From: an uncultured Methanosarcinales archaeon
Lineage (GTDB): Archaea > Nanobdellota > Nanobdellia > Woesearchaeales > UBA583
Length of the DNA stretch: 64,000 nucleotides
Reading direction: 5' to 3'
Assembly: GCA_964429995.1 (NCBI GenBank)
Contig: CAYSDY010000002.1
Coordinates: forward strand, 110,361-174,360
The position numbers and the translations under genes were made by a program. The notes beneath the pieces are model-generated. The model made no database searches. It worked only from the letters and a program-made list of their open reading frames with translations, and was not told the DNA's origin. This document shows positions 25,918 to 61,907 of the stretch, in pieces (within the stretch, counting starts at the first letter, position 1; the number at the start of each line of letters is the position of its first letter).

Positions 25918-25918
25918 A

Positions 25919-26410: not shown

Positions 26411-26411
26411 A

Positions 26412-30693: not shown

Positions 30694-30694
30694 A

Positions 30695-37282: not shown

Positions 37283-38203
37283 TCAATGTTTAATCACCTC
37301 TAACACTTTTTCATATTCTTTTACTGCAATCTCTTTTTTGTTTAAATAATGAGTCATTCCAACATTTTTTGAAGTTGACCTTCCAGATATGAAGTTTGCT
37401 ATTTCAATTGCAACTCCTGCTTTAACCATTAAAGTAAATGAATACTTTCTTAGATATTTTAAATGAACTATTTTCTTATTATCTTGAGTATGATCTACAA
37501 ATCTATTGAAGTATGTTTTATCAAATTTGCCAATATGTTTTTTTAATTCATTATATAATTCTAATGTGAAGAATAAATAATAAGATGATTTCTGACCTCT
37601 TAAATAGAAATTATTGTAAGTAACTATGCCGTTTTCATGTATTTCTATGTTTTTTTCATCAAAATTTTCAAAGAAATGTTTAACTTCTGTTGTCCTAGCT
37701 GTTGTTTCAATATAGAATCTATATAATAAATAATGTAATCGATCATACTTAGAGACTTCTTTTACAGAGTTTTTAATTTCCAAACATGTTGGAATATAAG
37801 TATCAATATGAACTTCATTGTGAATTTTAATTCTTCTTCGGATATTTTCAATTATATCTAAGTCTAATATATCAAACTCTTCTAAGTAATTCAGCCATAC
37901 TCTAATTGCAACTCCTCCTTGTCTTTTGTTAATTTTTTCAAGAGCAATAGCATTTTTAATCTCTTCAATAGTATTAACACCAATCTCTTCAAACAATTTA
38001 GTTAGACAATTAAAAACAGATACTGCGTAAGTTCTTGTGAACTTTTTTAAAGTATATACTTTATATTCATTTTTTGTCTTAAAGTATATACTTTTTAATT
38101 TTATAAAATTTTGATTTTTTGGCGTAAAATTTTCTAGATTTCGAGAAATTTGCTGTTGATTAGAAATTTGAGAGGAGGCGTATTTGCCCCCTAGAGACGC
38201 CAA
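37283..38203 (-). CDS. int: Tyrosine recombinase / integrase (second paralog); reading frame is open through the adjacent tRNA-Ser gene, start undefined
   Basis: C-terminal RKYSFTLMVKAG...GRSTSKNVGMTHYLN (H..R...Y) and IETTARTTEV (R). The ORF track's longest frame (37283..38326) begins at a TTG inside the tRNA duplicate and reads through the tRNA. There is no ATG/GTG/TTG downstream of the tRNA until about residue 98. Relative to int 10821, the protein lacks about 60 N-terminal residues. Confidence 0.65.
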   Translation of the reverse strand: MASLGGKYASSQISNQQQISRNLENFTPKNQNFIKLKSIYFKTKNEYKVYTLKKFTRTYAVSVFNCLTKLFEEIGVNTIEEIKNAIALEKINKRQGGVAIRVWLNYLEEFDILDLDIIENIRRRIKIHNEVHIDTYIPTCLEIKNSVKEVSKYDRLHYLLYRFYIETTARTTEVKHFFENFDEKNIEIHENGIVTYNNFYLRGQKSSYYLFFTLELYNELKKHIGKFDKTYFNRFVDHTQDNKKIVHLKYLRKYSFTLMVKAGVAIEIANFISGRSTSKNVGMTHYLNKKEIAVKEYEKVLEVIKH

Positions 38204-38279
38204 GACAGGGATTTGAACCCTGAATTCCGAAGGAACTACATTAGCAGTGTAGCGCAATACCGAGTTATGCGATCTTGGC
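38198..38279 (-). tRNA. tRNA-Ser (anticodon GCU), no encoded CCA
   Basis: Minus-strand sequence gccaaga..ctaca-ctGCTaa-tgtag, long variable arm ttccttcggaatt, T-arm cagggttcaaatccctg, acceptor tcttggc plus discriminator g. The 7-bp acceptor and 5-bp anticodon stems pair perfectly. Confidence 0.8.
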
Positions 38280-38308
38280 ATTAGGTCTCTTTTTTTAGTC
38301 GCCGCCGG

Positions 38309-38348
38309 ATTAGCAGTGCTGCGCAATACCGAGTTATGCGACCTTGGC
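38309..38348 (-). repeat. Tandem partial duplicate of tRNA-Ser 5-prime half (acceptor/D-arm/anticodon loop, ~40 nt, 3 mismatches)
   Basis: Reads gccaaggtcgcataactcggtattgcgcagcactgctaat on the minus strand, versus gccaagatcgcataactcggtattgcgctacactgctaat in the tRNA. It lies 29 nt upstream of the tRNA 5-prime end. It is a likely att remnant. Confidence 0.55.
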
Positions 38349-40645: not shown

Positions 40646-43537
40646 ATGAGATATTACAAGACAGGTATTTGCGTTTTATTGTTTTTTTTTGTTTTTTGCA
40701 ATGTTGTTTTTGGTGTTGGCGTCTTTGAAAATGGACGATATGTTTATTATACTAATAATTCACAACCACAGATAAGTATTAATATTACTGCTGGCAATGA
40801 AAGGCTTTTTATTGATAAAGGAGTTTTTTCATCTGATAATTTTGAAAAAGTTTATATTATACCTTCAGAGGATAGATATTTACCTTTATTTGCAAGTGGT
40901 AGTTATAATTTTTTACTTGATTTTGGAATTTCAAACATGAATAATCCTAAATTTAAATTGTTTGTTTATGATATGTCTAACAATCAGGTTGTTCCTAAGG
41001 GAGATTCTGTTGATTTTTCTTTAGTTTATGATAATGTGTCTCCTTTTATGACTTATTTTTTGAATGATATCAAAAAGAGTTCTAAACTAATGTTTAAGTT
41101 TAATGAGAGAATTTCTGAGCTTAAGGTTTCTTTTGATGGTCTTGGAACAATAAGATATAACAATATAGAGTACAATAATGTTTTGCTCAATGATATAATT
41201 TCAATTGATGTATCGAGTCTTAATTTTAAGAAGGATTTGTATGATATAACAATAGAATATGTAGATCTTGCTGGGAATGTTGTTGTTGAAACAAAAACAG
41301 TTTATGTTGGTCTTGAAGATCTTAAGGTTGAACTTCTTACAGTTAATGAGGATTCTTCTTTAAAGTATAATTATGATTCAAAATACCCATCTTTTTTTAA
41401 CAAAACAATATATTCTTCTTCTTCTGATTTTTTAATTAAAATAAAGACCAATAAAAATGCAAACTGTTTTTTTAGTTCTTCTTCTTATCAATTTAAAGAA
41501 TTTTATGCTCTTAATGATAAAAAATTAATGGAAAGCGATTCTGAAAATTTGACACATAGTGTAAGTGTTGGAAAGTTGGATGAGAAAATATGGATAGCTT
41601 GTCAGAATACTTATTATGAGAGTGAAATTGTTTATCTTAGTGCGGTTATGGGACTTGGAAATACTTTAATAAATATTGAAAAGTATGATCCATTAACTTT
41701 ATCTATTATTGATTTTGAACCAACAGGATTAGTTACAAATAATCCATTTTCTGTTTTGGCAAATACTGATAATCGTGCTATTTGTAATTATAGAATAGAT
41801 GATGCTGAACTTTTAATGATGGATACTTTAAATTTTACATCTTTTAAAAAAGAGAATGTTCAAACTACTGTTGGTACTCATGAACTGTATTTTGAATGTT
41901 TTGATGTTTTGGGCAGAAAGGCTGTAAAGAATACAAATATTCAGGTTGATCCTAATAGAGGAGTAAGTATTGTTAGTTATTCTCCTAAATATGTTGCAAA
42001 GACTTCTTCAGATATAGAGCTTACATTAAGTGAATCTAATAATGATATAAAATGCCGTTATAGTAAGACACAAAAAAGTAAGAGTAGTTTTTTAACATTG
42101 CCTTTGATATCTAATGGAGTGGGTAATAAGAGAAGTTTTTTACTTAGTGGCCTTGTTTCTGGAAATAATACAGTTTATATATATTGTAGCAAAAATGATG
42201 AGATTAGCGAGGATGTGATATCAATTATATATGATGATAAAGGGATGATGATTGATAATCTTAAATTTATTAATGGAAAGTATAAAAGTGATTATCTTGG
42301 TAGTTCTTTAGAACTTGAATTAGATTTTGATTTATCATCTCTTGTTCCTGTTTCTAAATATACTTTAACTGTTGTTTACAAGGATGATGATAATTATAGT
42401 AAAACTTATTCTGGTAGCAAACCATTATATCTAAAAAGAGATCTTAATGATTCTTTAAAGGTTGTTCTTGTTGCTGATAATGGTTTAACTACTGTTACAA
42501 AAGAGAAGATGATAAAGTTTGATATGGATCCTCCGGTTGTTGAGATAATTAATGTGCTTCAGGGAAAAAAGATTACATGTACAGATCCATTAAGTGGTTG
42601 TGCGTTGATATATTATGGATTTTCAAAAACGGATTTTGATTGTTTGCCAAATAAAATATATGCTAATTCCTCAGATGTGATCAATGTTGCTGGTCAGGTT
42701 TACATGTGTGCTCAGGCTTTTGATTATGTAGGATTATCTTCTAAAGTAACAGTTCTTGTTGGTGATTATAAGCCAAAAGAGGAAGAAAAGAATACTACAG
42801 TTGTTGATAATAAAAAGGATGATAAAAAAACAGATACTGATGATAAAAAGGTTACAGAACCTGAAAATCCATTTAAGAATATAGATGAAGATGATAATAC
42901 ATCTGATGAAAATAATACTGGAATGATAATAGGTGCTGTTATTTTATTGTTTGCAACTGTTGGTGGAGGAGGTTATTATGCATATAAAAAAGGATATCTA
43001 AACAAGGAGCTTGAAAAATTAGGAATAAAAACACATATGCAGAATTCTGGCAATGATTCTTTAATGCAGAATAATTCATCATCAGCAGGAAAAAATAATG
43101 GAATGATTTATGATTCATCTTCTATGCCTTATAGTAACAGGAAAGTTTCATCTTATGATTCTGGTGCTGAATATGATAAGCATATAAACAAAATAAATAG
43201 TTTTATTGATTCAAAGATTAGTGAGACATCTAATGTATTTGCTGAATTTGATGAAAAGAAAAAAAAGAAGGATGATGATAAGGATTCTGATTTTGATCAA
43301 AAAACTCTTATATCAAAAAAGAAATCTAAATCAAATATTATTGAAGAAGAGGATTTTGATGAATTTTACAAAGCAAGCAAGGAAATAGAAAAAAACATAC
43401 AAATGGATGACATAAAAGATCAAGCTACATCATTTGAGGAATATTATAAAAACAAAAAAAAAGACAAATCAGAATTAAAAGATAAGGATATTAAAAATAA
43501 GGATTCTAATAAAAAGGATGATGAAAAGAGTAAGTAA
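40646..43537 (+). CDS. Large cell-surface protein (signal peptide, Ig/beta-sandwich-like repeats, C-terminal TM anchor and K/D/E-rich cytoplasmic tail); S-layer/adhesin candidate
   Basis: N-terminal ICVLLFFFVFCNVVFG signal. C-terminal GMIIGAVILLFATVGGGGYYAYKKG TM followed by a lysine/aspartate-rich tail. Confidence 0.6.
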   Translation: MRYYKTGICVLLFFFVFCNVVFGVGVFENGRYVYYTNNSQPQISINITAGNERLFIDKGVFSSDNFEKVYIIPSEDRYLPLFASGSYNFLLDFGISNMNNPKFKLFVYDMSNNQVVPKGDSVDFSLVYDNVSPFMTYFLNDIKKSSKLMFKFNERISELKVSFDGLGTIRYNNIEYNNVLLNDIISIDVSSLNFKKDLYDITIEYVDLAGNVVVETKTVYVGLEDLKVELLTVNEDSSLKYNYDSKYPSFFNKTIYSSSSDFLIKIKTNKNANCFFSSSSYQFKEFYALNDKKLMESDSENLTHSVSVGKLDEKIWIACQNTYYESEIVYLSAVMGLGNTLINIEKYDPLTLSIIDFEPTGLVTNNPFSVLANTDNRAICNYRIDDAELLMMDTLNFTSFKKENVQTTVGTHELYFECFDVLGRKAVKNTNIQVDPNRGVSIVSYSPKYVAKTSSDIELTLSESNNDIKCRYSKTQKSKSSFLTLPLISNGVGNKRSFLLSGLVSGNNTVYIYCSKNDEISEDVISIIYDDKGMMIDNLKFINGKYKSDYLGSSLELELDFDLSSLVPVSKYTLTVVYKDDDNYSKTYSGSKPLYLKRDLNDSLKVVLVADNGLTTVTKEKMIKFDMDPPVVEIINVLQGKKITCTDPLSGCALIYYGFSKTDFDCLPNKIYANSSDVINVAGQVYMCAQAFDYVGLSSKVTVLVGDYKPKEEEKNTTVVDNKKDDKKTDTDDKKVTEPENPFKNIDEDDNTSDENNTGMIIGAVILLFATVGGGGYYAYKKGYLNKELEKLGIKTHMQNSGNDSLMQNNSSSAGKNNGMIYDSSSMPYSNRKVSSYDSGAEYDKHINKINSFIDSKISETSNVFAEFDEKKKKKDDDKDSDFDQKTLISKKKSKSNIIEEEDFDEFYKASKEIEKNIQMDDIKDQATSFEEYYKNKKKDKSELKDKDIKNKDSNKKDDEKSK

Positions 43538-43582: not shown

Positions 43583-44284
43583 ATGAAACATAGTTTTATA
43601 TTTTTAATGAATAAAAAGAAAGGTTTTTTGGATTACCTTAAAAGGTTCTGGAAATATTTATGGCATGATGATTCTTTGGGTTCTTATGTCTTAAATTTTA
43701 TTTTTGCATTTATTTTTATAAAATATCTGTTCTTTCCTACAATTGGTTTTTTACTTAACAATGATTATCCTATGGTTGCAATTGTTTCAGGTAGTATGGA
43801 ACATAAAATAGTTAATCATAATGTGTGTGATAAAAATGTTGTTGATACGCAAAATAAAAACCTTAATTTTGATGAATGGTGGAGTTTGTGTGGTACATAT
43901 TATGAAAAGATTAACATAACAAAAGCTGACTTTAAAGATTTTGATTATTCAGGTGGGCTTAATATAGGAGATATGATGGTTTTGTATGGAAAAGATCCTA
44001 AAAACATAGAAGTTGGAGAAATACTTGTATTTATTCCACAAGATAGGAATTTTTTTGTGCAAAAAGGTCCAGTTATACACAGAGTGGTTGATAAATGGGA
44101 AAATGAGAATGATGGTAAGTTTTATTTTGCAACTAAAGGGGATCATAATTCTGAAATATTTAAAGATTTTGAAAATAATATATCATCTGATAATGTGATT
44201 GCTGTTGGAGTTGTAAGAATTCCTTATATGGGATATGTAAAGATTATGTTTACAAAATTGGTATCTTATGTGACTGGTGGTTAG
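43583..44284 (+). CDS. Signal peptidase I (S26 family, archaeal Sec11-type)
   Basis: VAIVSGSMEH (box B Ser), GDMMVLYG (box C), IHRVV and TKGDHN (box D/E). Confidence 0.65.
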   Translation: MKHSFIFLMNKKKGFLDYLKRFWKYLWHDDSLGSYVLNFIFAFIFIKYLFFPTIGFLLNNDYPMVAIVSGSMEHKIVNHNVCDKNVVDTQNKNLNFDEWWSLCGTYYEKINITKADFKDFDYSGGLNIGDMMVLYGKDPKNIEVGEILVFIPQDRNFFVQKGPVIHRVVDKWENENDGKFYFATKGDHNSEIFKDFENNISSDNVIAVGVVRIPYMGYVKIMFTKLVSYVTGG

Positions 44285-44288
44285 GCAA

Positions 44289-45623
44289 ATGATTGAATCA
44301 AAACTTAGAAGTGTTGTTTTAGGAAGGATTAAAACGGATGAGTCTGAACATGCTTTTATTACATCTTGTGTTGAATCTGTTATTAAAAATCTTACAACTT
44401 GTGCTGAAAAATTAAATATTGACTGTAATTTTTTTGTTGGTGGTAGTTTTGGAAAGAATACTTATCTTAAGAATAATTCAGATGTTGATGTCTTTGCAAG
44501 GTTTTCTTTATCATATGATGATGATAAACTTAATGTTTATCTTGAAAAAATTTTAGAATTGGCTGGATATGATTATAAAAAACTTAAAGGATCAAGAGAT
44601 TATTTTGCTTTTTCTTTAAAGAATGGTAAAATTAGTCTTGATTTTGAGATAGTTCCTAATAGGTTTATTTTGTCTGCGGATAAGGCATTAAATACTACTG
44701 ATGTTTCTCCTTTTCATGTTGAGTTCATAAAAAAGATAGCTAAAAAAAATCCTTCTGTTTGCGATGAGATAAGACTTGCAAAACAGTTTTTTAAATCAAA
44801 AAAGTTATATGGTGCTGAGAGTTATATTAAAGGGTTTTCAGGTCATGTTATAGATATTATGATAAGTTATTATGGTAGTCTTGAAAACTTGCTAAATGAT
44901 GCTAAAACATGGGGAGAAGAAAAATTGATCGACATTAACAATGAATATGGATGTATTGATAAGGCAAAAGATTTTATGGGTAAATGTGGTAAATCATCAA
45001 GACTTATAGTTGTTGATCCTGTCTTAAAAGAGCGTAATGCAGCAAAATCGTTAAGTGATGATAATTATGCAAGATTCATTTTGATTGCAAATTTTATTTT
45101 GGAATTAAAAGAATCAGATTTTATAATAAATGATGTAGAAATCTTAGACTTATTTAAAAGTGCAAAAAAATTTGCAGAATCAAATGGTATGTTTTTTCTT
45201 TCGTATATTGTATCAGTTGATATGAAAGGAAATAGTTGTGATATTGTTGGGTCAAAACTTTTAAAATTACATGGAAAACTTAAAAAGTATTATGAATCGT
45301 ATGATTTTTTTTCATTAAAGGATACTTTTTCAGTAGAACTTAAAAGATCTAATCAGGCTTTAATGGTATTTTTTTTTGAATATTCTAAATTGTCTGACCT
45401 AAAAAAGGTTATAGGTCCTTATGTTCATATGAAAGATAGTGTTGCAAATTTTATAAAAGATAAAAAATTTTATTTTGTTGAAGATTTTAGAGTTTACTCG
45501 TATCAGAAGAGAGATAAGTGCAAACTTAAGGATATTGCTTTTGTTGATGCTTTAAAAATGGAAAAACTTTTAGGTAAGGATATGAGTTTTGTTTCAAAAG
45601 TTAGATTTTATTCTAATCTTTAA
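44289..45623 (+). CDS. cca: CCA-adding enzyme (archaeal class I tRNA nucleotidyltransferase)
   Basis: FFVGGSFGKNTYLKNNSDVDVFARF (G[GS]x9-13Dx[DE] Pol-beta NTase motif) in a ~445-aa protein. I prefer the ATG at 44289; the ORF track's 44277 start is GTG. Confidence 0.6.
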   Translation: MIESKLRSVVLGRIKTDESEHAFITSCVESVIKNLTTCAEKLNIDCNFFVGGSFGKNTYLKNNSDVDVFARFSLSYDDDKLNVYLEKILELAGYDYKKLKGSRDYFAFSLKNGKISLDFEIVPNRFILSADKALNTTDVSPFHVEFIKKIAKKNPSVCDEIRLAKQFFKSKKLYGAESYIKGFSGHVIDIMISYYGSLENLLNDAKTWGEEKLIDINNEYGCIDKAKDFMGKCGKSSRLIVVDPVLKERNAAKSLSDDNYARFILIANFILELKESDFIINDVEILDLFKSAKKFAESNGMFFLSYIVSVDMKGNSCDIVGSKLLKLHGKLKKYYESYDFFSLKDTFSVELKRSNQALMVFFFEYSKLSDLKKVIGPYVHMKDSVANFIKDKKFYFVEDFRVYSYQKRDKCKLKDIAFVDALKMEKLLGKDMSFVSKVRFYSNL

Positions 45624-45646: not shown

Positions 45647-45768
45647 TATTCCTTTGAATAAATGAATACTTCAAAGGAATGATTAAAAATTGCAGTAAAA
45701 AAAAATGAGTGATAAATGCCCCATCATTTATGGCTGGGATAATTCAAATTTTGTGATTTTTGTTTTAT
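45647..45768 (+). repeat. Structured intergenic element, copy B; overlaps the last 13 codons of smc
   Basis: See 40404..40540. It lies between the convergent cca and smc genes. Confidence 0.6.
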
Positions 45769-48700
45769 TATCTTCTTTTTCTATATAATCACTCATGTTT
45801 CTTAAATCAAGACTTACTACATCACTTATCTTGTATTTATCCATTGTAACTCCATATATTATCTCTGCACTTTGTATTAAGTGTTCACTATGGCTTACAA
45901 CTATGTATTGTGCGTATTTGGAATATTGTCGTATTAGTTTTCCTAATTTTTCTGCATTCATTATGTCAAGTGCAGCATCTACTTCATCAAATATGTAAAA
46001 ACTTGCAGGATTGAATTCTTGTACTGCAAATATGAAAGCTATTGCTGTAATTGTTTTTTCTCCACCTGATAATGATTTTATATCAAGATAATTTTTTTGT
46101 GTAAGCCTTACTCTTATATCTACTCCATTGTTAAATATGTCGTTTTCGTTTTCAAGTATTAACTCAACTTCTCCTTTTGTTGATAGTGTTGAAAATACTT
46201 CTATAAAATTCTTTTTTAGTTTATTGAAAGTTTCTAAGAATTTTTCTTTCTTTTTTACATCCATTTCTGCTATAAGTTTTAATATATCTTCTTTTTCTAT
46301 GTTTAATGATTCTCTTTTTTCTAATAAATTATTAAATTCTTCGTATAGCATGTCATAAACTTCAATCGCTTTAAGATTGATTGAACCAAATGAATTTATT
46401 TTTGATTTTATATTGTTTACCTTGTTTTGTAATTCTTTTATATTTAATTCGTTGTTGTTTAGTTCTTTTTCGACATCTGTTATCAATTCTTCTATTTTAT
46501 TATGTCCTATTTGATTTCCATCAGATCCTGTCATTATGAACTCGCTCTTTATTTCTTCATATACAAGATCAAGTTCTTCATTTAATGTTTCGTTTAATGT
46601 ATTAAATTCAGATAATGAATAATTTAGTGTTGCAATATCTGTTTTGATTTTTTCAAATTTGGAATATTCTTTGTCGTATTCTTCTTCCAATTTTTTTCTT
46701 GATGATTTTAAATCATCTCTTTGTTGAATAAATTCTTTATAATTTTTTGATAATTCTTTTTCTTTTTTTTGGTTTGTTTTTAATTCTTCTGATAATTCTT
46801 TATCTTTTTGTGATAATTCTTCTAACTTTTCCTTAAATTCTTTTATTGCAATTTCAGATTCTTTTGCTATTTTATGTAAATTGTTTATATCAGGTGTTAA
46901 AACATTTTTTATCTGTATATTGTGACTGTCTATTGAAAGATTGATTTTTGCTAAATTTTCTTTTAAAGAGTCTCTTTCTTTTTCCATAAGATTAATTGTT
47001 TCTATTATGTCTGCCTGTTGGTTTGAATTGAATTTAAATTTGTTTTTTTCAGTGTTTAATTCTTCTATTTCTTTTGTTAACAAATCTATGTCTTTATCTA
47101 TTTTTTTTATACTATTTTCTATGACTACTTTGTCTGAAAGTATGTTATTTATCAATTCGTGGATTTCCTTATCACTTGAATTTATTGAGAGTATTTTTTC
47201 AATTTTACTTATTTCTCCTTCAAGTTCTGCTTTTTCCTGTCTTAGCGAGTATAGTTTTTCTTCACTATTCTTTTTTTCTTCTTTTAATATATCAATACTT
47301 GAAGATACAGAACTAATTTTATTTTCAAGTGCCTGCATTTTTTCTTCAAGCACATCGTCTTTAAAGATACCCATACTTGTGTTTTTTGATTTAAAACCAC
47401 CAGTCATTGCACCGGATTTTGATACTATATCGCCATCAAGTGTAACCATTTTATATGTACCTATTCCTATTTGTTTTGAATCTTCTATTCTTTCTATTAC
47501 TATTGAATCAGCAAAAATTAAATGAAATATGTTTTCGTATTTTGGATCGTATTTTACAAGGTTTAATGCATAATCTATTACTCCTTTCTTGTTTAATACT
47601 GATTCATCAAGTTTGAATTTTTTGTGTATTTGATTTAAAGGTAAAAATGTTGCATTTCCTATTCTGTTGTCTTTAAGATAATTAATGTATTTTACAGCTG
47701 TTGCATCATTTTCTACTACTATGTTAAATAGATTTTTGCCTGCAATTGTTTCCATTGCCATTGCATATTTTTCTGTAACGCTTGCAAGTTCTGCAACAGT
47801 ACCACATATTGAATTATCTTTATTTTTTAGTTTTATAATTGTGTCTACTGCTTTGTTTGTCATCATTATTTCTTTTGAACTTTCAAGTCTTATCTTTAAT
47901 TTTGAGTGTTTTTCTATTAATTCTGAATATTCATTTAAAAGATTGTTTAATTTTGCACTTGCTTGTGAGTTATTGCTTGCTGTTTGAGATATTTCAATTA
48001 TTGCTTTTTTTAATTTTGTTCTATACTGTTCAAGTATCTTTATTTGTTCTTTATTTTCTATATTGCTTTTTTCTATTTTATTAAGATCGTTTTCAAGATG
48101 TTCTATTTTTGTGTTTAATTTTTCTATTTGGATTTGGTTTTCCTGCTTTATCTGATTTTTGTTGTACTTTTTTGAATTTAAATCTTCTATTTGTTGTTCT
48201 ATCTCATCAATTTTTTTTAAACTTTCAGTTGAAAGGCCTTTTTTTTGTTCTGATAATTTTAATTCTGCTGTTCTTATTTTTTTTTCAATTTCTGATTTTT
48301 CATTAATAAGATCTGTAATCTTTTCATTTATAGCTTTTATTTCTGAATTATTGTTTTTTATATTTTCACTTATTTCAATATTTTTTGTTTTTATTTCCTC
48401 TATTTGTTTTTTTAATTCTGCTTTTTTTTCGTTAACTTTTTGTATTTCACCTTCAAGATAAGTTATTTTATTTGTTACTTCTATAAAATCTTGGTGTGAT
48501 TTTATTTCTATGCTTTTTTCAAGATTTTCAAGCATAAAATCTATTTTTGATTCTTCCTTTTCAAGAGTTTCAAGTTGATGTTTTGATTTTTCAAGTATTT
48601 TTTCGTTTGAACTTAATTCTTCTGTTTTTTTATCTTTTAGTTGTTTGTTTCGTAAAAGTTTTGATTTTATTAAAAGAAGATTGTTAAATCTTAATTCTGC

Positions 48701-49363
48701 TTTTGCCTGATTATATTTTTCAGCAAGTTCTTTTTCTGATTTTAATTCTTTTATGTATTTTGTCTTTTCAGCAAGAAGAAGATCTGCTTCTTTTAGATCT
48801 ATTTCAACTTTTTCAAGTTTTGATAATGAATTTTGCCTTTTTTCTTCGTAATTTGAAATGTTGGAAATTTCTTCTATTAGTTCACGCCTTTCATTTGGGG
48901 TCATGTTAACTATCTTATTAATGTCTCCTTGAAGGATTATGTTGTATCCATCTGGATTAATTGATGCATTTTTTAAGATTTCAAGTATTTCTGTTCTTGT
49001 TGCTTTTTTATCGTTTATATAGTACATAGATGAACCTAATTTGTTTACTATTCTACTTATTTTAATTTCATCACAATCAATGTTTAAAAGTTCCTTGTTC
49101 TCATTTGAAAGAAAGATTGCAACTTCTGCTTCTTTTGATGGTTTTGATGTTTTACCTCCATTAAATACAAGATTTCCAAGTTTGTCAGCCCTTAAACCTT
49201 TAGATGACATTCTTCCTAATACAAAACAAAGTGCATCAAAAACATTAGATTTTCCAGATCCATTGGCTCCAACTATTGTGTTAAAACCTTCTTCAAAATT
49301 AAGTACTGTAGGATTAGCAAAAGATTTGAATCCTTTAAGTTTTAAACGTTTAATTCTACTCAT
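45728..49363 (-). CDS. smc: Chromosome segregation protein SMC
   Basis: N-terminal FKSFANPTVLNFEEGFNTIVGANGSGKSNVFDA. Long coiled coils with a hinge. C-terminal LSGGEKTITAIAFIFAVQ and IFDEVDAALD. Confidence 0.85.
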   Translation of the reverse strand: MSRIKRLKLKGFKSFANPTVLNFEEGFNTIVGANGSGKSNVFDALCFVLGRMSSKGLRADKLGNLVFNGGKTSKPSKEAEVAIFLSNENKELLNIDCDEIKISRIVNKLGSSMYYINDKKATRTEILEILKNASINPDGYNIILQGDINKIVNMTPNERRELIEEISNISNYEEKRQNSLSKLEKVEIDLKEADLLLAEKTKYIKELKSEKELAEKYNQAKAELRFNNLLLIKSKLLRNKQLKDKKTEELSSNEKILEKSKHQLETLEKEESKIDFMLENLEKSIEIKSHQDFIEVTNKITYLEGEIQKVNEKKAELKKQIEEIKTKNIEISENIKNNNSEIKAINEKITDLINEKSEIEKKIRTAELKLSEQKKGLSTESLKKIDEIEQQIEDLNSKKYNKNQIKQENQIQIEKLNTKIEHLENDLNKIEKSNIENKEQIKILEQYRTKLKKAIIEISQTASNNSQASAKLNNLLNEYSELIEKHSKLKIRLESSKEIMMTNKAVDTIIKLKNKDNSICGTVAELASVTEKYAMAMETIAGKNLFNIVVENDATAVKYINYLKDNRIGNATFLPLNQIHKKFKLDESVLNKKGVIDYALNLVKYDPKYENIFHLIFADSIVIERIEDSKQIGIGTYKMVTLDGDIVSKSGAMTGGFKSKNTSMGIFKDDVLEEKMQALENKISSVSSSIDILKEEKKNSEEKLYSLRQEKAELEGEISKIEKILSINSSDKEIHELINNILSDKVVIENSIKKIDKDIDLLTKEIEELNTEKNKFKFNSNQQADIIETINLMEKERDSLKENLAKINLSIDSHNIQIKNVLTPDINNLHKIAKESEIAIKEFKEKLEELSQKDKELSEELKTNQKKEKELSKNYKEFIQQRDDLKSSRKKLEEEYDKEYSKFEKIKTDIATLNYSLSEFNTLNETLNEELDLVYEEIKSEFIMTGSDGNQIGHNKIEELITDVEKELNNNELNIKELQNKVNNIKSKINSFGSINLKAIEVYDMLYEEFNNLLEKRESLNIEKEDILKLIAEMDVKKKEKFLETFNKLKKNFIEVFSTLSTKGEVELILENENDIFNNGVDIRVRLTQKNYLDIKSLSGGEKTITAIAFIFAVQEFNPASFYIFDEVDAALDIMNAEKLGKLIRQYSKYAQYIVVSHSEHLIQSAEIIYGVTMDKYKISDVVSLDLRNMSDYIEKEDNKTKITKFELSQP

Positions 49364-49892: not shown

Positions 49893-51149
49893 TTATTTGA
49901 TCATTTCCTTATATATTTTTATTAGTTTTTCAGCTGGAAAATCCCATGAAAATCTATAAAAATTATTGTGTGCATTTTCTCTTATGTGTTGGTGTAAATC
50001 TTCATATCTTATAAGTGAAATCATTTGATTGGCCATTTCATCAGTATCCCAAAAATCAACTTTAAATGAATGTGTAAGTACTTCTGATATGCCAGATTGT
50101 TTGGATATTATTGTTGGTGTTCCTTTAGCAACAGCCTCAAGAGGTACTATTCCAAAAGGCTCTGATACTGATGGCATTACAAATATGTCTGCTAATGAAA
50201 AAAACATGTCCGCTTCATTCCTACTGTATTTTCTTCCAAGAAGGTATATATTGTTTTTTATGCCATATTCATCACAAAGACTTTTTATTCTTGGTAATAA
50301 GTCACCTTCTCCTGCTACTATAAACTTTGTGTCTTTTTCGTATTCTAATACTTTTTTGGCTGCTCTTATGAAAAATTCTGGACCTTTTTGAGTTGTGATT
50401 CTTCCTGCAAATAGTACTATCTTGTTTTTATTCCCATAATTTTTTCCACTTAATTCTGGTTCAAGATCACTAATACCTCCGTTATGGATTACTCTTATTT
50501 TGTCTGGATTTACATGATAGCAATCAACAAGTTTGTGTTTTACAAAATTACTTACAGCAACAAGAATGTCGCAATTAGCAAAACCTTCCTGTTCTATTTT
50601 AAATATTTCATCATCTCCACCCATATTTCCTGTCTTGTCAAGCTCAGTTATGTGTACATGAAGAATTACAGGTTTGCCAGTTAATTTTTTAAGTATTAAT
50701 GCTGCCGGAATACTTGTCCAATCGTGTGCATGAATTATGTCAAATTTTTCATCCTTGTATATTTCTGCAACTCTTTTGGCATAAAGATATACTTCTTCAA
50801 GCAGGTTATCTCCATAAAGTTTTCCTATATCTTTTTTTGTATTGCCGTTTTCTTTTTTTTGTAACTCCCTTATTCTTGCTGAGTATTTTTCGTATGTATC
50901 ATATGCTTTTATGGTACTGAAAACTCTTCTAAAATTGAGACTAAACTGTACATGTTTTCCAAAAGAATGTGCAGACTGTATTTTTAATTTTTCAAATCTT
51001 GTTTCTTCCTGTGCTGGACCATATGGCATTACATAGGTTATATCAAGTGTCTCGTTTTTGCAAAGGGAACGTGTGAGTTCGTAACATGCTATTCCTAAAC
51101 CCCCTGCAAAGTGAGGTGGAAATTCCCATCCGAGCATTAAAATTTTCAT
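49893..51149 (-). CDS. Glycogen-synthase-like retaining glycosyltransferase (GT4/GT5 clade)
   Basis: MKILMLGWEFPPHFAGGLG N-terminus, as in archaeal/bacterial glycogen synthases. C-terminal EPFGIVPLEAVAKGTPTI (E-x7-E). Confidence 0.65.
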   Translation of the reverse strand: MKILMLGWEFPPHFAGGLGIACYELTRSLCKNETLDITYVMPYGPAQEETRFEKLKIQSAHSFGKHVQFSLNFRRVFSTIKAYDTYEKYSARIRELQKKENGNTKKDIGKLYGDNLLEEVYLYAKRVAEIYKDEKFDIIHAHDWTSIPAALILKKLTGKPVILHVHITELDKTGNMGGDDEIFKIEQEGFANCDILVAVSNFVKHKLVDCYHVNPDKIRVIHNGGISDLEPELSGKNYGNKNKIVLFAGRITTQKGPEFFIRAAKKVLEYEKDTKFIVAGEGDLLPRIKSLCDEYGIKNNIYLLGRKYSRNEADMFFSLADIFVMPSVSEPFGIVPLEAVAKGTPTIISKQSGISEVLTHSFKVDFWDTDEMANQMISLIRYEDLHQHIRENAHNNFYRFSWDFPAEKLIKIYKEMIK

Positions 51150-56750: not shown

Positions 56751-57800
56751 ATGGGCTTAAGTTTTATTGAGTTTTTGTTTGGTGGAGGGAAAAAGGTTAA
56801 AAACAATGTTTCTGTGATGAATCAGGCTATGGGAAACAATGGCATGCCTGTTCCTAATCCATCAGTAAATCAGAATGCAGGTTCTCCTGTTAGTTCAGAA
56901 GTTTTGCAATTTCAGGATCAAAGAACTGCAGTACAGTCACAGATGCCTGCTAATATGCAACAGATGCCTGCAGGGCAAGGAAGTTTTTATCCTAATAATT
57001 CGCAATTCCAAAGTGGAATTGATCTTTCAAAAATACATGATGACATTAAAGAAGTAAGTGATAATGTGATAAATCTTACTACTGAGATAAAAGATATGCA
57101 AAATAGCATATCAGGAATTGATAATAGGGTTAAAGAACTTGAAAATTCTAATAAGACTGTTGATGGAAAACTTAAGGATATGGATTCAAGTATGAATAAA
57201 TTTCTTTCTTTGTATGAAATAGTCAATAGCCAATACAATCCTTTTGTTGATTCAGAATCGATTATTAAACCAGCTAAGGAAATAGTTATTTCAAACGATG
57301 GTTCAAGTGTTGTTGTAAATGATTCGCATTCAAAAGGTAATAAGGATGCTGAAAAGGTTTTAGATTTGAAATCTTCTGATGTAAGATTTGGCTCTGATGG
57401 TAAAAGGATTGATTCATTGTTAGAACTTGATACTTTAAACATTGAAGAAGCAGCACATGATGCTGTTCCTTTAACAAAATTGAAAAGCAATACTAATTCG
57501 TTGGTTGTAATACTTAGCTGGCTTGAGTATCTTGTTAAAAGATCTGGGCTTGAAGAAACAAAAAATATATTAAGATATTATACGGAAACATTGAAATGGA
57601 TAACTCCTGAAGTTTATTTTGACCTTGACAAGTTTTTAAGAGGTATGGATGATATATCTGAGTCTAGTAAAAGAGAAAAACTTGGTGTTAAAGACCATAT
57701 AGTATCTCTTTATTTCATAAGTAAGCTTAATGAAAAGAAACTTGATGACAGATTGACTGTTGCAGTGTTAAAAATTATAAAAGATTCTCAAAATGAATAA
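56751..57800 (+). CDS. Archaellum FlaC/D/E (ArlC/D/E)-domain-like protein
   Basis: Q/N/P-rich N-terminus and coiled coil. C-terminal LSWLEYLVKRSGLEETKNILRYYTETLKWITPEVYFDLDKFLRG resembles the conserved FlaD/E block. Confidence 0.4.
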   Translation: MGLSFIEFLFGGGKKVKNNVSVMNQAMGNNGMPVPNPSVNQNAGSPVSSEVLQFQDQRTAVQSQMPANMQQMPAGQGSFYPNNSQFQSGIDLSKIHDDIKEVSDNVINLTTEIKDMQNSISGIDNRVKELENSNKTVDGKLKDMDSSMNKFLSLYEIVNSQYNPFVDSESIIKPAKEIVISNDGSSVVVNDSHSKGNKDAEKVLDLKSSDVRFGSDGKRIDSLLELDTLNIEEAAHDAVPLTKLKSNTNSLVVILSWLEYLVKRSGLEETKNILRYYTETLKWITPEVYFDLDKFLRGMDDISESSKREKLGVKDHIVSLYFISKLNEKKLDDRLTVAVLKIIKDSQNE

Positions 57801-58263
57801 TATCTTTTTTTCTAAGAAGGGATCAGGAGAAGCTGTAAGTACTCTTATAATGTTTATAGCTGTTGTTAGTATCACTACTGGTTTAGTTATTGCTTTTTTC
57901 AATTATACTCAGAATACTCAACATTCTTTTGATATGCAAAACAAACTTACTAATAATAAACTGAAAACATCAATTACTGTAACTAATGTACACTATGATG
58001 AACTATCTTTATCATTAAGGGTTTATGTAAAAAATATAGGTCAGACTAATCTTGATACATCTAAATTTGATGTGTTTTTTAATAATGAATTTATTGGTAA
58101 TTTTTCGGCTTTAAATCCTGTAAACTTGTCTGAAGATTTAAGATTGCTTATTCCTTATCAGACGGTTACTCTTGTATTTAATCAGACTCCTGATTTAGGT
58201 ACAAATCAGATTAAGGTTTTGACAGAGTATGGAGTAGGAGATCAAGTATCGTTTAATCATTAA
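57793..58263 (+). CDS. Archaeal pilin/FlaG-like protein with class III (type IV pilin-like) signal peptide
   Basis: N-terminal KKGSGEAVSTLIMFIAVVSITTGLVIAFF followed by a beta-rich domain. Confidence 0.4.
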   Translation: MNNIFFSKKGSGEAVSTLIMFIAVVSITTGLVIAFFNYTQNTQHSFDMQNKLTNNKLKTSITVTNVHYDELSLSLRVYVKNIGQTNLDTSKFDVFFNNEFIGNFSALNPVNLSEDLRLLIPYQTVTLVFNQTPDLGTNQIKVLTEYGVGDQVSFNH

Positions 58264-58264
58264 A

Positions 58265-59659
58265 ATGAGTGGGTTATCTTCTTTTATTGGGTTTACTTTT
58301 GCTTTTTTTGTCATAGTCATGGTTTTTTTTAGTGTTTTTTATACTTATGAAAATCAATTAAAGCTTGAATATTCAACACTTAAGCGAATGGAGGAGAATA
58401 AGATGAATATAGATGATTTTTCGATTGGAATTGATTCATATTCTTATTCATCTGGCAGGTTAAAATTCGTATTTTCAAATAAGGGAATGAAAAATCTTAA
58501 ATTTGCTGATGATAAATCAGTTTATTGTTTTGAAATGTTTGATAATGATAAAATAAAATCTTTATCTGATTTATCTTTTGTGCCATTTAATTATTCATTA
58601 GCAGGAAATTATAACATGATTACTCCAAAAGAGTTGATGAGTGTATCTGTTTTTTATCCTGATTTTGAACATACAAACAAAACATTAAAATTTATTTCAT
58701 GTTATGGTAATAAATTTAGTTATATGATTGATTCATCAAAACACAATTGGTTATTGCCAGAATTTTTGCAAAGGAGCACTTTTGTTGTTGAAAATTCTAA
58801 AAGTTCATATTCTTTTAACGAAACTTATTATTACAATATAACAGAAGAAGATTTTGATTTTACTAAAAACATAACAGATCTGGTTTTGGTTTATCCGCTT
58901 TTAGATAGTCTTGTTCTTGATTTAACACTTGATGAATACAGACAGGATCTAATTGATTATACAGGAAAATCAAACGTATATCTTGGAAATGGTATAAATA
59001 ATGAGATTTCTGATCCTGTCTCTGAATCAGGGGTTCTATTTGGTGGACTTTTGTTTGATGGGATAAATGATAAAGTTACAGTTATGTCTGAAAATCTTAA
59101 AATTAAGAAAGATTTTTCGTTTTCATTATGGATAAAACCTAAAAGTGATACATTAAGTTCTTGTATATTTAGTGATGATACTGGTAAAAATATGTTATCT
59201 TTACAAAAACAAAATGCTAGTGATTATAATCTAAAAATGGATATGGAATTTTTTTCTTCTTCCTATTCTTTTGAAATATCTAAATTTTTAAAATATGATA
59301 AATGGAGCATGATAACTGTTGTAAGAAATGATGACAAACTAAAGTTTTACATAGATGGAAAATATTTAGAGGAACTTTCTATATCAAATGATGAGATAAA
59401 TACAACACAACTTGTAAAAAATATTGCAGGACTTAATAATTCAGAGTTTTATAAAGGAATTATGGATGAAATTAAACTTTACAATGTTGCACTTAATGAG
59501 GATGAAATAAAAATGCTGTTTTCAAATCAAGAGGTTTTTAGAGAAATGCCTTATAAAATTGAAGGATATTCTTATGAAAATAAAACAGCATTAATAAGTT
59601 TTAATGTTTTGTTTTTAGATCCTTATGGATCAGTGTCTTATAGTATGTATTATGGATAA
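58265..59659 (+). CDS. Membrane-anchored protein with C-terminal concanavalin/LamG-like domain (FlaF-like neighbourhood)
   Basis: N-terminal TM. LFGGLLFDGINDKVTV...FSFSLWIKP...KFYIDGKYLEE follows the LamG pattern. Confidence 0.4.
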   Translation: MSGLSSFIGFTFAFFVIVMVFFSVFYTYENQLKLEYSTLKRMEENKMNIDDFSIGIDSYSYSSGRLKFVFSNKGMKNLKFADDKSVYCFEMFDNDKIKSLSDLSFVPFNYSLAGNYNMITPKELMSVSVFYPDFEHTNKTLKFISCYGNKFSYMIDSSKHNWLLPEFLQRSTFVVENSKSSYSFNETYYYNITEEDFDFTKNITDLVLVYPLLDSLVLDLTLDEYRQDLIDYTGKSNVYLGNGINNEISDPVSESGVLFGGLLFDGINDKVTVMSENLKIKKDFSFSLWIKPKSDTLSSCIFSDDTGKNMLSLQKQNASDYNLKMDMEFFSSSYSFEISKFLKYDKWSMITVVRNDDKLKFYIDGKYLEELSISNDEINTTQLVKNIAGLNNSEFYKGIMDEIKLYNVALNEDEIKMLFSNQEVFREMPYKIEGYSYENKTALISFNVLFLDPYGSVSYSMYYG

Positions 59660-59777: not shown

Positions 59778-61907
59778 ATGTTTAGGTATCATTTGATAGA
59801 TGATTTTGACTTTAATGGAAAAGTTACAGGTTTAAGAGTTGATATAAATTCTCCTTTAAAAGATGGAAAAGTTATTTTGAACGAAAGAATAAGAGAACAT
59901 GCAAAAACAATTCTTGAACTTTCTGAAAAAGGAGCAAAAGTGGTTATTTTGGCTCATCAGGGAAGAAAGGGGGATGATGATTGTATAAGTTTGAAACAAC
60001 ATGCATTATTGATAGAAAAACAGATAGGTAAGAAAGTTAAATTTGTAGAAGACATATCCTCTAAGAAAGTTGCTCCTGAAATAAAAAAAATGAAAAATTC
60101 TGAAATTTTATTACTTGAAAATCTTCGTTTTTATGATGATGAGGAATCTTTTGATAATAAAAATAACAGTGTTTTAGTATTAGAGGAATTATTTGATATT
60201 TATGTTAATGATGCATTTTCTGTGGCACATAGATCTCAGACATCAATTGTTGGTTTTACGAAAATTCCTTTGGTTGCAGGAAGAGTTATGCAAAAGGAAA
60301 TTGAAGGATTAAATAATATTCTTGAAGTTAGAAGTCCATCAATATATATTCTTGGTGGAGCAAAACCAGATGACCTTATAGATATTATAGATTATGGACT
60401 TTCTAATAATCGTGTTGATTATGTTCTGCTTACAGGTGTTATTTCTGAAATAGCATTTCTTGCACAAGGTGTTGATATAGGAATTAAAAAGAAATTTCTT
60501 GAGGATAAAGGATATCTTTTAAGTTTTGATAAAGTTAAACTACTTATGGAAAAATATCATGATAAGATAGTTTTGCCCAAGGATTATGCTGTTTTTGATG
60601 GTAAAGAAAGGATTGATATTGCTATTGGTTGTGATGATTTTTCATCTTTGTCTAAAAAATACATGATTCAGGATATAGGTAAGAAAACTGTTGATTATTT
60701 TTATCATTTTTTAAAAGATGCTCAGTCGGTTTATCTTAAGGGTCCTGCAGGAAATTTTGAGGATTTAAATTTTGAGTATGGAACAAGGGAAATATTTTCA
60801 ATGTTAAGTAAAATATCAGCTTTTAAATATATGGGTGGAGGTCATAGTGTTACTGCTCTTGAAAGATATGGTTTTTTAAATAGTTTTTCATATATAAGTC
60901 TTGCAGGAGGTGCTCTTGTAAGGTTTCTTAGTGGCAAAAAACTTGTGGGTATTGAGGCTTTAGAGAAAAGTTTTGTAAAAGATGAAAAACATTATGAGGA
61001 TTTTTTGGTTGTAGGATCTAATACTCTTGATATAGGAATAAATGTGCCTGAAAATTTTAGTCAACTTCATCTTGGTGATAAGATAAAGATAGAAGAAGAT
61101 TTTAAGCAGTCTGTTGGTGGTGGTGGAGTAAATGTTGCAATATGCCTTAGTAGGCTTGGAGCAAAAGTTGCATATCTTGGAAAATTATCATATGAAAACA
61201 AAGATAAGATAAAAGAAGTGCTTGATAAGGATAAGGTTGCAATGGTTGATTCAAAGATATCTAAAAAACCTTGTGCTAAATCGGTTCTTATAGATACAAA
61301 AGATAATGATAGGATAATTTTAACATATAGAGGACAAAACTCATATCTAAAATCATCAGATTTTGATTTATCAGTTATTAATGCAAAAAATTATTATTTT
61401 TCATCTCTTAGCGATGATAGTTTTAAGACTCTTATGGATATTGCAAAGGATATAAAAGATAAAAAACCATCATCACTTTTATGTTTCAATCTGTCATCAT
61501 ACATAATAAAAACAGAATTATCATTGAATTTGCTTGTTAAAAAGTGTGATATAGTAATACTTAATTATGAGGAAGCTCAGGAGTTTACAAACAAAATTAC
61601 AATTAGTGATTGTCTAAAAAGTTTAAGGGAAAAATGTCAAAAACTTGTAGTTATAACTGATGCTGCAAACGGTGCTTATGCTTATGATGGTGAAAAAGAA
61701 TATTATGCTAAGGCTGTAAAACCAGATAAAATAGTTGATACAACTGGGGCAGGAGATGGATTTGCTGGAACTTTTTTTTATTTTTATGTTAAAGGATTTG
61801 GAATAAAAAAATCTTTAGAATTTGCTGCAAAAAACGCAGCATCTGTAATTTCATACAAAGGTTCACAGTATGGGCTTTTATATTATGATGATATAAAAAA
61901 AAACTGA
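59778..61907 (+). CDS. Fusion protein: phosphoglycerate kinase (N, ~410 aa) + PfkB/ribokinase-family sugar kinase (C, ~290 aa)
   Basis: PGK part: GLRVDINSPL, ILAHQGRKG, LLLENLRFYDDEE, GGGHSVTALE. PfkB part: GGGGVNVAICLSRLGAKVAYLGKL and DTTGAGDGFAG (anion-hole GAGD). Confidence 0.75.
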   Translation: MFRYHLIDDFDFNGKVTGLRVDINSPLKDGKVILNERIREHAKTILELSEKGAKVVILAHQGRKGDDDCISLKQHALLIEKQIGKKVKFVEDISSKKVAPEIKKMKNSEILLLENLRFYDDEESFDNKNNSVLVLEELFDIYVNDAFSVAHRSQTSIVGFTKIPLVAGRVMQKEIEGLNNILEVRSPSIYILGGAKPDDLIDIIDYGLSNNRVDYVLLTGVISEIAFLAQGVDIGIKKKFLEDKGYLLSFDKVKLLMEKYHDKIVLPKDYAVFDGKERIDIAIGCDDFSSLSKKYMIQDIGKKTVDYFYHFLKDAQSVYLKGPAGNFEDLNFEYGTREIFSMLSKISAFKYMGGGHSVTALERYGFLNSFSYISLAGGALVRFLSGKKLVGIEALEKSFVKDEKHYEDFLVVGSNTLDIGINVPENFSQLHLGDKIKIEEDFKQSVGGGGVNVAICLSRLGAKVAYLGKLSYENKDKIKEVLDKDKVAMVDSKISKKPCAKSVLIDTKDNDRIILTYRGQNSYLKSSDFDLSVINAKNYYFSSLSDDSFKTLMDIAKDIKDKKPSSLLCFNLSSYIIKTELSLNLLVKKCDIVILNYEEAQEFTNKITISDCLKSLREKCQKLVVITDAANGAYAYDGEKEYYAKAVKPDKIVDTTGAGDGFAGTFFYFYVKGFGIKKSLEFAAKNAASVISYKGSQYGLLYYDDIKKN

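Follow-up and report, generated by a model that had tools for sequence, protein, structure and literature searches.

Covalent union of phosphoglycerate kinase (PGK) with a second glycolytic enzyme has a precedent in Thermotoga maritima, whose PGK is fused at its C terminus to another enzyme of the same operon, triosephosphate isomerase (TIM; NCBIfam model NF010569). Among kinases of the PfkB family, which have the ribokinase fold, Escherichia coli Pfk-2 has its motif-I lysine replaced by glycine, and Lys27 from the complementary chain fills that position, stabilizing the transition state (PMC6429617); the same in-trans Lys27 is present in the sulfofructose kinase YihV (PMC8006165). Genes for phosphofructokinase (PFK) are reported to be absent from every Woesearchaeota genome in one reconstruction (PMC5994134) and from all except 14 in another (PMC8421398). 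A pfk gap is likewise reported in many genomes of the candidate phyla radiation (CPR), with fructose-bisphosphate aldolase (FBA) present in the examples examined, and reconstructions of DPANN and CPR metabolism repeatedly show it even with the remaining glycolytic steps in place and invoke a pentose-phosphate bypass to fill it. In Nanosynbacter lyticus TM7x, a 'ribokinase' encoded in the FBA operon, TM7x_02415, is predicted to be a pfkB-type PFK and is glucose-induced (PMC12815258). Here we describe a gene that joins an archaeal PGK to a PfkB-family kinase, at positions 59778 to 61907 (+ strand) of a 64,000-nucleotide stretch of DNA (the window: forward-strand positions 110,361 to 174,360 of contig CAYSDY010000002.1, assembly GCA_964429995.1, deposited as an uncultured Methanosarcinales archaeon and placed by GTDB in the Woesearchaeales, UBA583). 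Judged from its sequence and relatives, the product is on balance probably a bifunctional enzyme, PGK plus an ATP-dependent ketose-phosphate 1-kinase that is most likely 6-phosphofructokinase, derived from fused adjacent pgk and pfkB genes. It shares with the T. maritima enzyme a C-terminal extension of PGK but carries a kinase in place of TIM; NF010569 matched it at 252 bits through the PGK part only (model positions 4–394 of 645), and the cut-off of 883 was not reached.

The open reading frame (ORF) begins with the ATG at 59778, ends with the stop codon at 61905–61907 and contains no internal stop over its 709 codons; a 2.1-kb frame in DNA of ~28% G+C is far beyond chance. Its two Pfam domains are both nearly or fully covered: the PGK profile (PF00162) matches residues 7–387 over profile positions 1–379 of 379 (339.8 bits; cut-off 27), and the PfkB profile (PF00294) matches residues 411–698 over positions 6–297 of 302 (162.1 bits; cut-off 25.8). 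The archaeal-type PGK half comprises amino acids (aa) 1–399 (59778..60974, +), identified by PF00162, by its best solved relative and by invariant alignment columns, and the PfkB half comprises aa 410–709 (61005..61904, +), identified by PF00294, an AlphaFold2 (AF2) model and Foldseek. Between them lies a linker, VKDEKHYEDF (~aa 400–409; 60975..61004, +), which has no in-frame Met close by, varies in length among homologues and is the lowest-confidence block of the AF2 model (pLDDT ~70). Confidence otherwise was high, with a mean pLDDT of 90.4 and a pTM of 0.73 for the full-length protein, dipping at the linker, and a pLDDT of 95.7 and pTM of 0.93 for the PfkB half alone. A preliminary description of the window had proposed a single in-frame 709-aa ORF in which a complete archaeal PGK precedes a PfkB kinase with GG and DTTGAGD motifs; each of these features was recovered, the motifs as GGGG at aa 447–450 and DTTGAGD at aa 654–660 (nucleotides 61737–61757), with the catalytic motifs intact and no frameshift needed to explain the ORF.

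We considered whether two separate genes might have been joined artificially, through a frameshift, loss of a stop codon or a chimera created in assembly. Homopolymer runs (A5, T6) near the junction, the existence of relatives in which unfused pgk and pfkB abut or nearly do so, and one seeming stand-alone copy that proved to be a fold-back contig end all speak for such an artefact. The identical 709-aa protein is, however, recorded on 7 contigs and listed by four sources (NCBI, JGI, Logan and ENA), ~78 diverged homologues stay in frame through linkers that differ in sequence and length, and the fusion is present on a closed 1.2-Mb Woesearchaeota chromosome (OZ242164.1). Because linker sequence and length both differ among homologues, the frame has been kept by selection and not by a common sequencing error. 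The probability left to an assembly or sequencing artefact is negligible, and the 7 contigs, the homologues and the GTDB genomes exclude it as the origin of the fusion.

In a search of 5.8 billion protein clusters (90% identity), 82 clusters carried both domains, ~78 of them full length (683–1014 aa, with 38–63% identity over 100% of the query), and when 1.84 billion representatives clustered at 50% identity were searched exhaustively with HMMER, ~11 fused clusters were returned. This survey of domain architecture shows that the homologues are not always separate genes. Full-length fusions occur in 17 GTDB species-representative genomes of Woesearchaeota/Nanoarchaeota; all named fusion homologues come from Woesearchaeota or Nanoarchaeota metagenome-assembled genomes (MAGs), and public records label the fused proteins 'phosphoglycerate kinase' only. 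In a neighbour-joining tree (without support values), 28 fused PfkB halves formed one clade within a subfamily that includes stand-alone members, suggesting a single fusion event. The architecture had been called non-standard in the preliminary description, a view that holds: no curated NCBIfam model covers it, no PDB structure spans both halves (Foldseek, query-normalized TM score ≤0.54) and no description of a PGK–PfkB fusion was found in the literature, so that the bifunctional architecture is, to the extent of the literature searched, previously undescribed. Linkers range from ~10 residues here through 20–25 in a deeper subclade to ~310 in P0038, a 1014-aa homologue (locus L017, 1100–4144) whose spacer is strongly acidic, Glu/Lys/Asp-rich, of low complexity and without a Pfam match. 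A 55% identical protein (P0122) was rejected as a true stand-alone orthologue, because its contig opens with an inverted copy of the linker and of the beginning of PfkB; this fold-back artefact of assembly (L025, 1–170) makes a fused gene resemble a stand-alone 303-aa PfkB in protein databases. The representative library also held other unusual PGKs (P0252, P0258 and P0308), namely tandem PGK–PGK proteins of 795–797 aa and a PGK of 733 aa whose C-terminal domain is of the 4Fe-4S dicluster type.

The first ~400 residues are predicted to be an ordinary archaeal PGK, in agreement with the preliminary description. Across 28 fusion sequences of 39–63% identity (alignment A1), residues R20, D22, N24, R37, H60, R63, R117, R152, K196, E328 and GGGH 353–356 are invariant; from the general PGK literature, we take these to be the basic patch for 3-phosphoglycerate (3-PG) and the nucleotide-binding motifs. 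They line up with Pyrococcus horikoshii PGK (PDB 2cun), the best solved relative of this half (270 bits), which it resembles over the full length of that enzyme; the 3-PG basic patch and the archaeal nucleotide motif GGGH are common to both, but the P. horikoshii enzyme lacks the 300-residue C-terminal PfkB kinase of the fusion. Foldseek comparison of the AF2 model with 2cun recovered the two-lobe PGK fold (target-normalized TM score 0.92, root-mean-square deviation 2.0 Å). This half would interconvert 1,3-bisphosphoglycerate plus ADP and 3-PG plus ATP.

Assignment of the PfkB half is less direct, as it reached no curated NCBIfam equivalog cut-off, that of ribokinase included. Besides the models taken up below, it scored 84 bits with IolC (cut-off 300), the second-best NCBIfam model, 66 bits with hexose kinase TIGR03168 (cut-off 216), 58 bits with ribokinase PRK11142 (cut-off 341), 48.5 bits with nucleoside kinase (cut-off 450) and 47–54 bits with the ribose-1-phosphate kinases NF041134 and NF053626 (cut-offs 330–500). 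We found nothing to support the dependence on ADP raised as a possibility in the preliminary description: the PfkB half matches PF00294, Pfam detected no domain of the ADP-dependent kinase family PF04587 in the fusion protein, and NF041134 gave 47 bits against 500. With the PfkB half as query, we found stand-alone relatives of 320–335 aa (33–38% identity, 140–170 bits) that are far closer to it than any characterized enzyme and share with the fused halves the motifs GxKIxI (in the lid), GGGGxN, DR, YFSS[LM]xGxSFxT and NPSxYL; several are named 'ribokinase' by JGI, and they scored 100–136 bits with ribokinase model TIGR02152 and up to 121 bits with IolC. By these scores, the PfkB half is a member of an uncharacterized PfkB-fold subfamily and not of the clade of Pfk-2, 1-phosphofructokinase (1-PFK) and tagatose-6-phosphate kinase. 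E. coli YdjH was the best solved-structure profile match (128.7 bits) but was rejected as a functional model, being without the GGGG motif and the lid Lys.

Residue-level comparison was more informative about mechanism. We added the E. coli ribokinase and Pfk-2 sequences, identical to PDB entries 1gqt/1rkd and 3cqd/3n1c, to an alignment of the subfamily, and read conservation from A1 (28 fusions) and from alignment A3 (56 subfamily sequences). The core catalytic positions are invariant in both A1 and A3: D418 (61029..61031, +), a putative sugar-hydroxyl-binding Asp, aligns with ribokinase D16 and Pfk-2 D14; N596–E599 (61563..61574, +), the NxxE Mg/phosphate site of PfkB kinases, aligns with N187–E190 of both Pfk-2 and ribokinase; and the TGAGD anion hole (aa 656–660; 61743..61757, +) places the presumptive catalytic base D660 opposite Pfk-2 D256 and ribokinase D255. 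The roles of D14 and D256 in Pfk-2 are documented (PMC6429617). Two further positions resemble Pfk-2 and not ribokinase. Motif I reads GGGG (aa 447–450; 61116..61127, +) followed by N452, is invariant in the fusions and is identical to that of Pfk-2, so that the ribokinase motif-I Lys (K43) is Gly in the PfkB half as in Pfk-2. In addition, the lid-strand Lys of the GxK motif, K435 (61080..61082, +; K31 of alignment A3), is invariant in all 28 fusions and 56 subfamily sequences and aligns with Pfk-2 K27, where ribokinase carries Thr; in stand-alone members, the lid Lys lies 11 residues from GGGG, as in Pfk-2. By analogy, K435 is a candidate in-trans catalytic or phosphate-binding Lys. R512 aligns with Pfk-2 R105, which binds the 1-phosphate, and K/R437 with R29, which together with R90 binds the 6-phosphate, R29 being contributed by the partner chain (R29'; PMC6429617). 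Pfk-2 resembles the fused half in fold, catalytic Asp, NxxE, lid Lys, the aligned R29 and R105, a motif I that reads GGGG where ribokinase has GGKG, and the reaction proposed here, but differs from it by low sequence similarity and by a TR motif with R90 that is not evident in the fused half. The lid Lys combined with Gly in motif I characterizes E. coli Pfk-2 itself, motif I being GGKG in tagatose-6-phosphate kinase and 1-PFK.

E. coli ribokinase (RbsK, 1rkd) and the M. jannaschii nucleoside kinase MJ0406 (2c49) are among the closest model and fold relatives (TM score ~0.8). The ribose ligands of E. coli ribokinase are said by Sigrell et al. (1998) to be N14, D16, K43, N46, E143 and D255. In the subfamily alignment N14, K43 and E143 are not conserved, nor are they in the fused half, whose ribokinase score is far under the cut-off; equivalents of D16, N46 and D255 are present, but these are family-generic. 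Taken as a set, the Pfk-2-like features favour a ketose C1-kinase mechanism, and the PfkB half may work like Pfk-2 without being a member of its family.

Genomic context of the stand-alone relatives ties the subfamily to aldolases. The first stand-alone members examined lie beside aldolases of three unrelated families: a class II FBA that passes TIGR01859, a LacD-like class I aldolase in a PfkB–aldolase–RpiB–Rpe operon (passing NF009498) and a DUF2090/DeoC-like protein. A metagenome scan supplied 80 further loci, and we clustered all of the flanking ORFs, up to 10 kb on either side, blind to annotation. Class II ketose-bisphosphate aldolase was the commonest neighbour (25 loci), followed by Rpe (17), RpiB and PpsA/PPDK-like proteins (15 each), glyceraldehyde-3-phosphate dehydrogenase (GAPDH; 12), DhnA-type class I aldolase (10) and transketolase halves (6). 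For 29 of 80 unique stand-alone genes (36%), an aldolase gene lies no more than 200 bp away, in every case on the same strand, and for 35 there is one within 3.5 kb; when the count is limited to the 46 loci that extend 900 bp or more to either side of the gene, 17 show an abutting aldolase gene and 22 an aldolase gene within 3.5 kb. All five class II aldolases tested pass TIGR00167, and those of L043, L062 and L026 also pass the FBA equivalog TIGR01859. In bacterial-looking, likely CPR contigs (L064, L068, L075, L082, L084 and L061), the gene order is a PpsA/PPDK-like protein (~800 aa), PfkB, class II FBA, a ribosomal protein L25/Ctc-like protein and a 470-aa secreted cell-wall-type protein, a recurrent order suggesting that this kinase–aldolase pairing has been conserved as an operon within a bacterial lineage. 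TM7x_02415 is similar by description, the level at which it was compared, to these stand-alone relatives: it is a 'ribokinase'-annotated PfkB gene in an FBP aldolase operon of a reduced genome without canonical pfk, but it is bacterial, stand-alone and unfused to PGK.

Three loci show what an unfused precursor would look like, with pgk directly upstream of a stand-alone pfkB on the same strand. In L023, from a Woesearchaeota MAG, the pgk stop is followed after 3 nucleotides by pfkB, which overlaps a DhnA-type aldolase gene; we rejected this locus as a fusion truncated at a contig end, as the stop codon between the PGK C terminus and the PfkB start marks an unfused operon. In L050, pgk and pfkB overlap by 8 nucleotides and are followed by CorA, a DhnA-type aldolase and TIM. 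In L059, glycogen synthase, GAPDH, PGK, PfkB, class II FBA and TIM genes are co-directional with gaps of at most 12 nucleotides, placing pfkB within an otherwise unbroken run of enzymes that lead from fructose-1,6-bisphosphate (FBP) to 3-PG; FBP supply, the PFK reaction, is the sole adjacent activity of the Embden–Meyerhof–Parnas (EMP) pathway without an assigned gene in that run.

Several observations weigh against assigning the PfkB half as a PFK. Its highest-scoring curated model was ribokinase TIGR02152 (85 bits; cut-off 299.65), the 1-PFK model TIGR03828 gave a partial match only (67 bits; cut-off 292), and the Pfk-2 model PRK10294 did not match the fused half and reached 36–38 bits on relatives against a cut-off of 353. 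Foldseek was rejected as a guide to substrate, with TM scores of 0.77–0.87 to ribokinases, the M. jannaschii nucleoside kinase, adenosine kinases, YihV and YdjH alike that fail to separate these activities; sequence searches of the PDB were no more discriminating and placed the PfkB half only generically among ribokinase-like enzymes. No counterpart was seen, in a region where the alignment is unreliable, to the T89–R90 'TR' 6-phosphate motif shared by Pfk-2 and tagatose-6-phosphate kinase; this TR motif, or RRS triad, binds the 6-phosphate in enzymes of that type (PMC8006165). As regards context, the DhnA-type aldolases could be ADH synthases, which NCBIfam does not separate from FBA, although the DhnA-type gene of L050 precedes TIM. 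Clustering of the ORFs flanking 17 fusion loci revealed no conserved metabolic neighbours, only archaellum FlaH, FlaI and FlaJ in close relatives, and an aldolase lay within 10 kb in only 1 of the 17 (L010). The closed chromosome that bears the fusion does have, no more than 7 kb from it, Rpe and an aldolase of the DeoC/DhnA family. Finally, the stand-alone relatives that supply the context are only 33–38% identical to the fused half, the function of which could have shifted after fusion.

Four other readings of the PfkB half were weighed against this evidence. It is unlikely to be a ribokinase or broad nucleoside kinase that would send scavenged ribose or nucleosides by way of the non-oxidative pentose phosphate pathway into lower glycolysis, with ATP recovered there by the PGK half. 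TIGR02152 is the top NCBIfam model for both the fused half and the stand-alone relatives, and JGI gives several of the latter the corresponding name, but every one of these scores is 2- to 3-fold under 299.65; the top Foldseek matches include ribokinases and the M. jannaschii nucleoside kinase, but the E. coli ribose ligands N14, K43 and E143 are replaced. RpiB, Rpe and transketolase often adjoin, and in one clade the gene sits between RpiB and Rpe with no aldolase near (L097, L102, L107, L111 and L113). The commonest and closest neighbour is nonetheless an aldolase (29 abutting), and the gap-pgk-pfkB-fba-tpi operon holds no pentose genes. DPANN archaea are thought to scavenge nucleosides, which would suit such an enzyme. 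An Aeropyrum pernix PfkB enzyme related to RbsK and MJ0406 acts as an ATP-dependent PFK, which would show that a ribokinase-like archaeal PfkB protein can be a PFK. Improbable to a similar degree is another aldolase-partnered kinase, acting on tagatose-6-phosphate, on sedoheptulose-7-phosphate only, on fructose at C1, on 5-dehydro-2-deoxygluconate as IolC does or on a ketoacid sugar as YdjH might. LacD-like tagatose/fructose-bisphosphate aldolases accompany a LacAB/RpiB-family gene at L031 and L058, IolC is the second-best model (84–121 bits across fused and stand-alone proteins) and a DUF2090 aldolase-like gene is found close to one relative, but no other inositol or galactose pathway genes lie near these loci. 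Among solved structures the profile search ranked YdjH first, a ketose kinase whose partner is the class II aldolase YdjI, yet YdjH has neither GGGG nor the lid Lys. A sedoheptulose-7-phosphate kinase/aldolase bypass would fit the reported lack of transaldolase in some CPR genomes; fructose-6-phosphate fits the GAPDH–PGK–FBA–TIM operon best.

Much less probable than either is that the PfkB half makes a pentose bisphosphate for form III RuBisCO (ribose-1-phosphate to ribose-1,5-bisphosphate, or ribulose-5-phosphate to ribulose-1,5-bisphosphate). The 3-PG that RuBisCO produces is a PGK substrate and would link the two halves, and Jaffe et al. (2019) reportedly described RuBisCO-based nucleoside salvage in DPANN and CPR organisms, but the aldolase linkage would be left unexplained. 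Archaeal PfkB-family ribose-1-phosphate kinases exist (NF041134 and NF053626), but the matches to them are weak, at 47–54 bits far under the cut-offs of 330 and 500. Moreover, no large-subunit motif was present in the loci scanned (L023–L114), and no RuBisCO, AMP phosphorylase or ribose-1,5-bisphosphate isomerase domain was found among the annotated ORFs of the window. Slightest of the four is the chance that the PfkB half is catalytically silent, a regulatory or oligomerization module for PGK; PfkB lids do mediate dimerization, but the invariance of GG, NxxE and TGAGD with its Asp over sequences 39–63% identical would be unexpected in a dead domain.

For the bifunctional PGK–ketose-phosphate 1-kinase that we favour, the following mechanism can be proposed. 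The PfkB half would phosphorylate the C1 hydroxyl of a ketose phosphate, most likely converting fructose-6-phosphate to FBP, and may also use sedoheptulose-7-phosphate. By analogy with Pfk-2, D418 would hold the sugar hydroxyls and D660 in the TGAGD anion hole would act as catalytic base, while N596 and E599 would position Mg-ATP. Dimerization probably occurs through the PfkB lid, forming a β-clasp across which Lys435 could reach the active site of the partner subunit. The fusion would have arisen once, from the neighbouring pgk and pfkB of a gap-pgk-pfkB-fba-tpi operon, in which loss of the stop codon between the two genes would give the protein seen in the window. One polypeptide would thereby carry, in fixed 1:1 stoichiometry, the EMP step that spends ATP and the earliest one that recovers it. 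Such fixed stoichiometry of ATP-investing and ATP-recovering steps is a plausible benefit, and local exchange of ADP and ATP between the halves is possible. Channelling of a carbon intermediate, the sugar/glycerate step envisaged in the preliminary description, is unlikely because three enzymes, aldolase, TIM and GAPDH, intervene between the two reactions (fructose-6-phosphate to FBP, and that of PGK) and because linkers vary from 10 to ~310 residues. The same description raised, as another possibility, a sugar kinase recruited to lower glycolysis; the evidence points instead to a PFK-like kinase of upper glycolysis that was co-operonic with pgk before fusion.

The fusion serves as a natural 'Rosetta stone': read alongside the gap-pgk-pfkB-fba-tpi operons, it connects an unassigned PfkB subfamily with the EMP pathway and provides a concrete PFK candidate for cloning and assay. 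A broader proposal, to which we give slightly less than an even chance, is that this subfamily is the 'missing' PFK of Woesearchaeota and many CPR bacteria, welded to PGK in one Woesearchaeota clade as a single dimeric machine, maybe with local ADP/ATP exchange. If so, these organisms would run complete EMP glycolysis and not the pentose-phosphate bypass usually drawn, and pathway maps and annotation rules would change for hundreds of reduced genomes, in which proteins of the subfamily now go by the names 'phosphoglycerate kinase', 'ribokinase' or 'carbohydrate kinase'. Covalent pairing of ATP-consuming and ATP-regenerating glycolytic kinases would also be a new enzyme organization and a test of adenylate coupling.

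Genes near the fusion in the window encode archaellum components, aIF2-gamma and AlaRS and, with the Woesearchaeota or Nanoarchaeota origin of every named homologue, mark the source as a DPANN archaeon. Directly upstream are a FlaC/FlaD/E-like gene (56751–57800), an archaeal flagellin (57793–58263) and a 464-aa Laminin_G_3 protein (58265–59659); in close relatives, FlaH, FlaI and FlaJ-like genes hold the archaellum position upstream of the fusion, and a functional link is not apparent. Annotated ORFs of the window include no FBA, TIM, GAPDH or RuBisCO. A glycogen synthase (PF05693; 51248–52852, +) lies ~7 kb upstream of the fusion, next to a GT4/GT5 glycosyltransferase (49893–51149, −), and echoes the arrangement of L059; it may reflect a link from glycogen to glycolysis. 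Elsewhere are a His_Phos_1 (dPGM-like) protein (5716–6276), a radical SAM/SPASM protein (6843–7943) and, as adjacent separate ORFs on the − strand, a PPDK_N protein (7880–8626) and a PEP-utilizer mobile-domain protein (8626–9630), which might represent the two parts of a split PEP synthase-like enzyme, or might be unrelated to one; a look-up of the ORF at 9620–10549 returned no record.

An apparent 27-kb defence or mobile island (10821–38326) is bounded by archaeal-type integrases at 10821–11948 (+) and 37283–38326 (−). It carries a RhuM-family gene (12006–13031), a type III restriction–modification methylase (13954–16500) with a Res helicase (16472–19288), RmuC (20535–21797), a HATPase_c_3 protein with a DUF6054-like partner (21868–24691), a PD-(D/E)XK nuclease and UvrD helicase-nuclease (24922–29243), and a complete Wadjet/JetABCD set (29245–36958). 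Three ORFs of the window, at 1226–4657 (−), 40646–43537 (+) and 43583–44284 (+), encoding 1144, 963 and 233 aa, had no Pfam match at E ≤ 0.001. Near these Pfam-less ORFs are genes for a CCA-adding enzyme (44277–45620) and an SMC protein (45731–49363, −).

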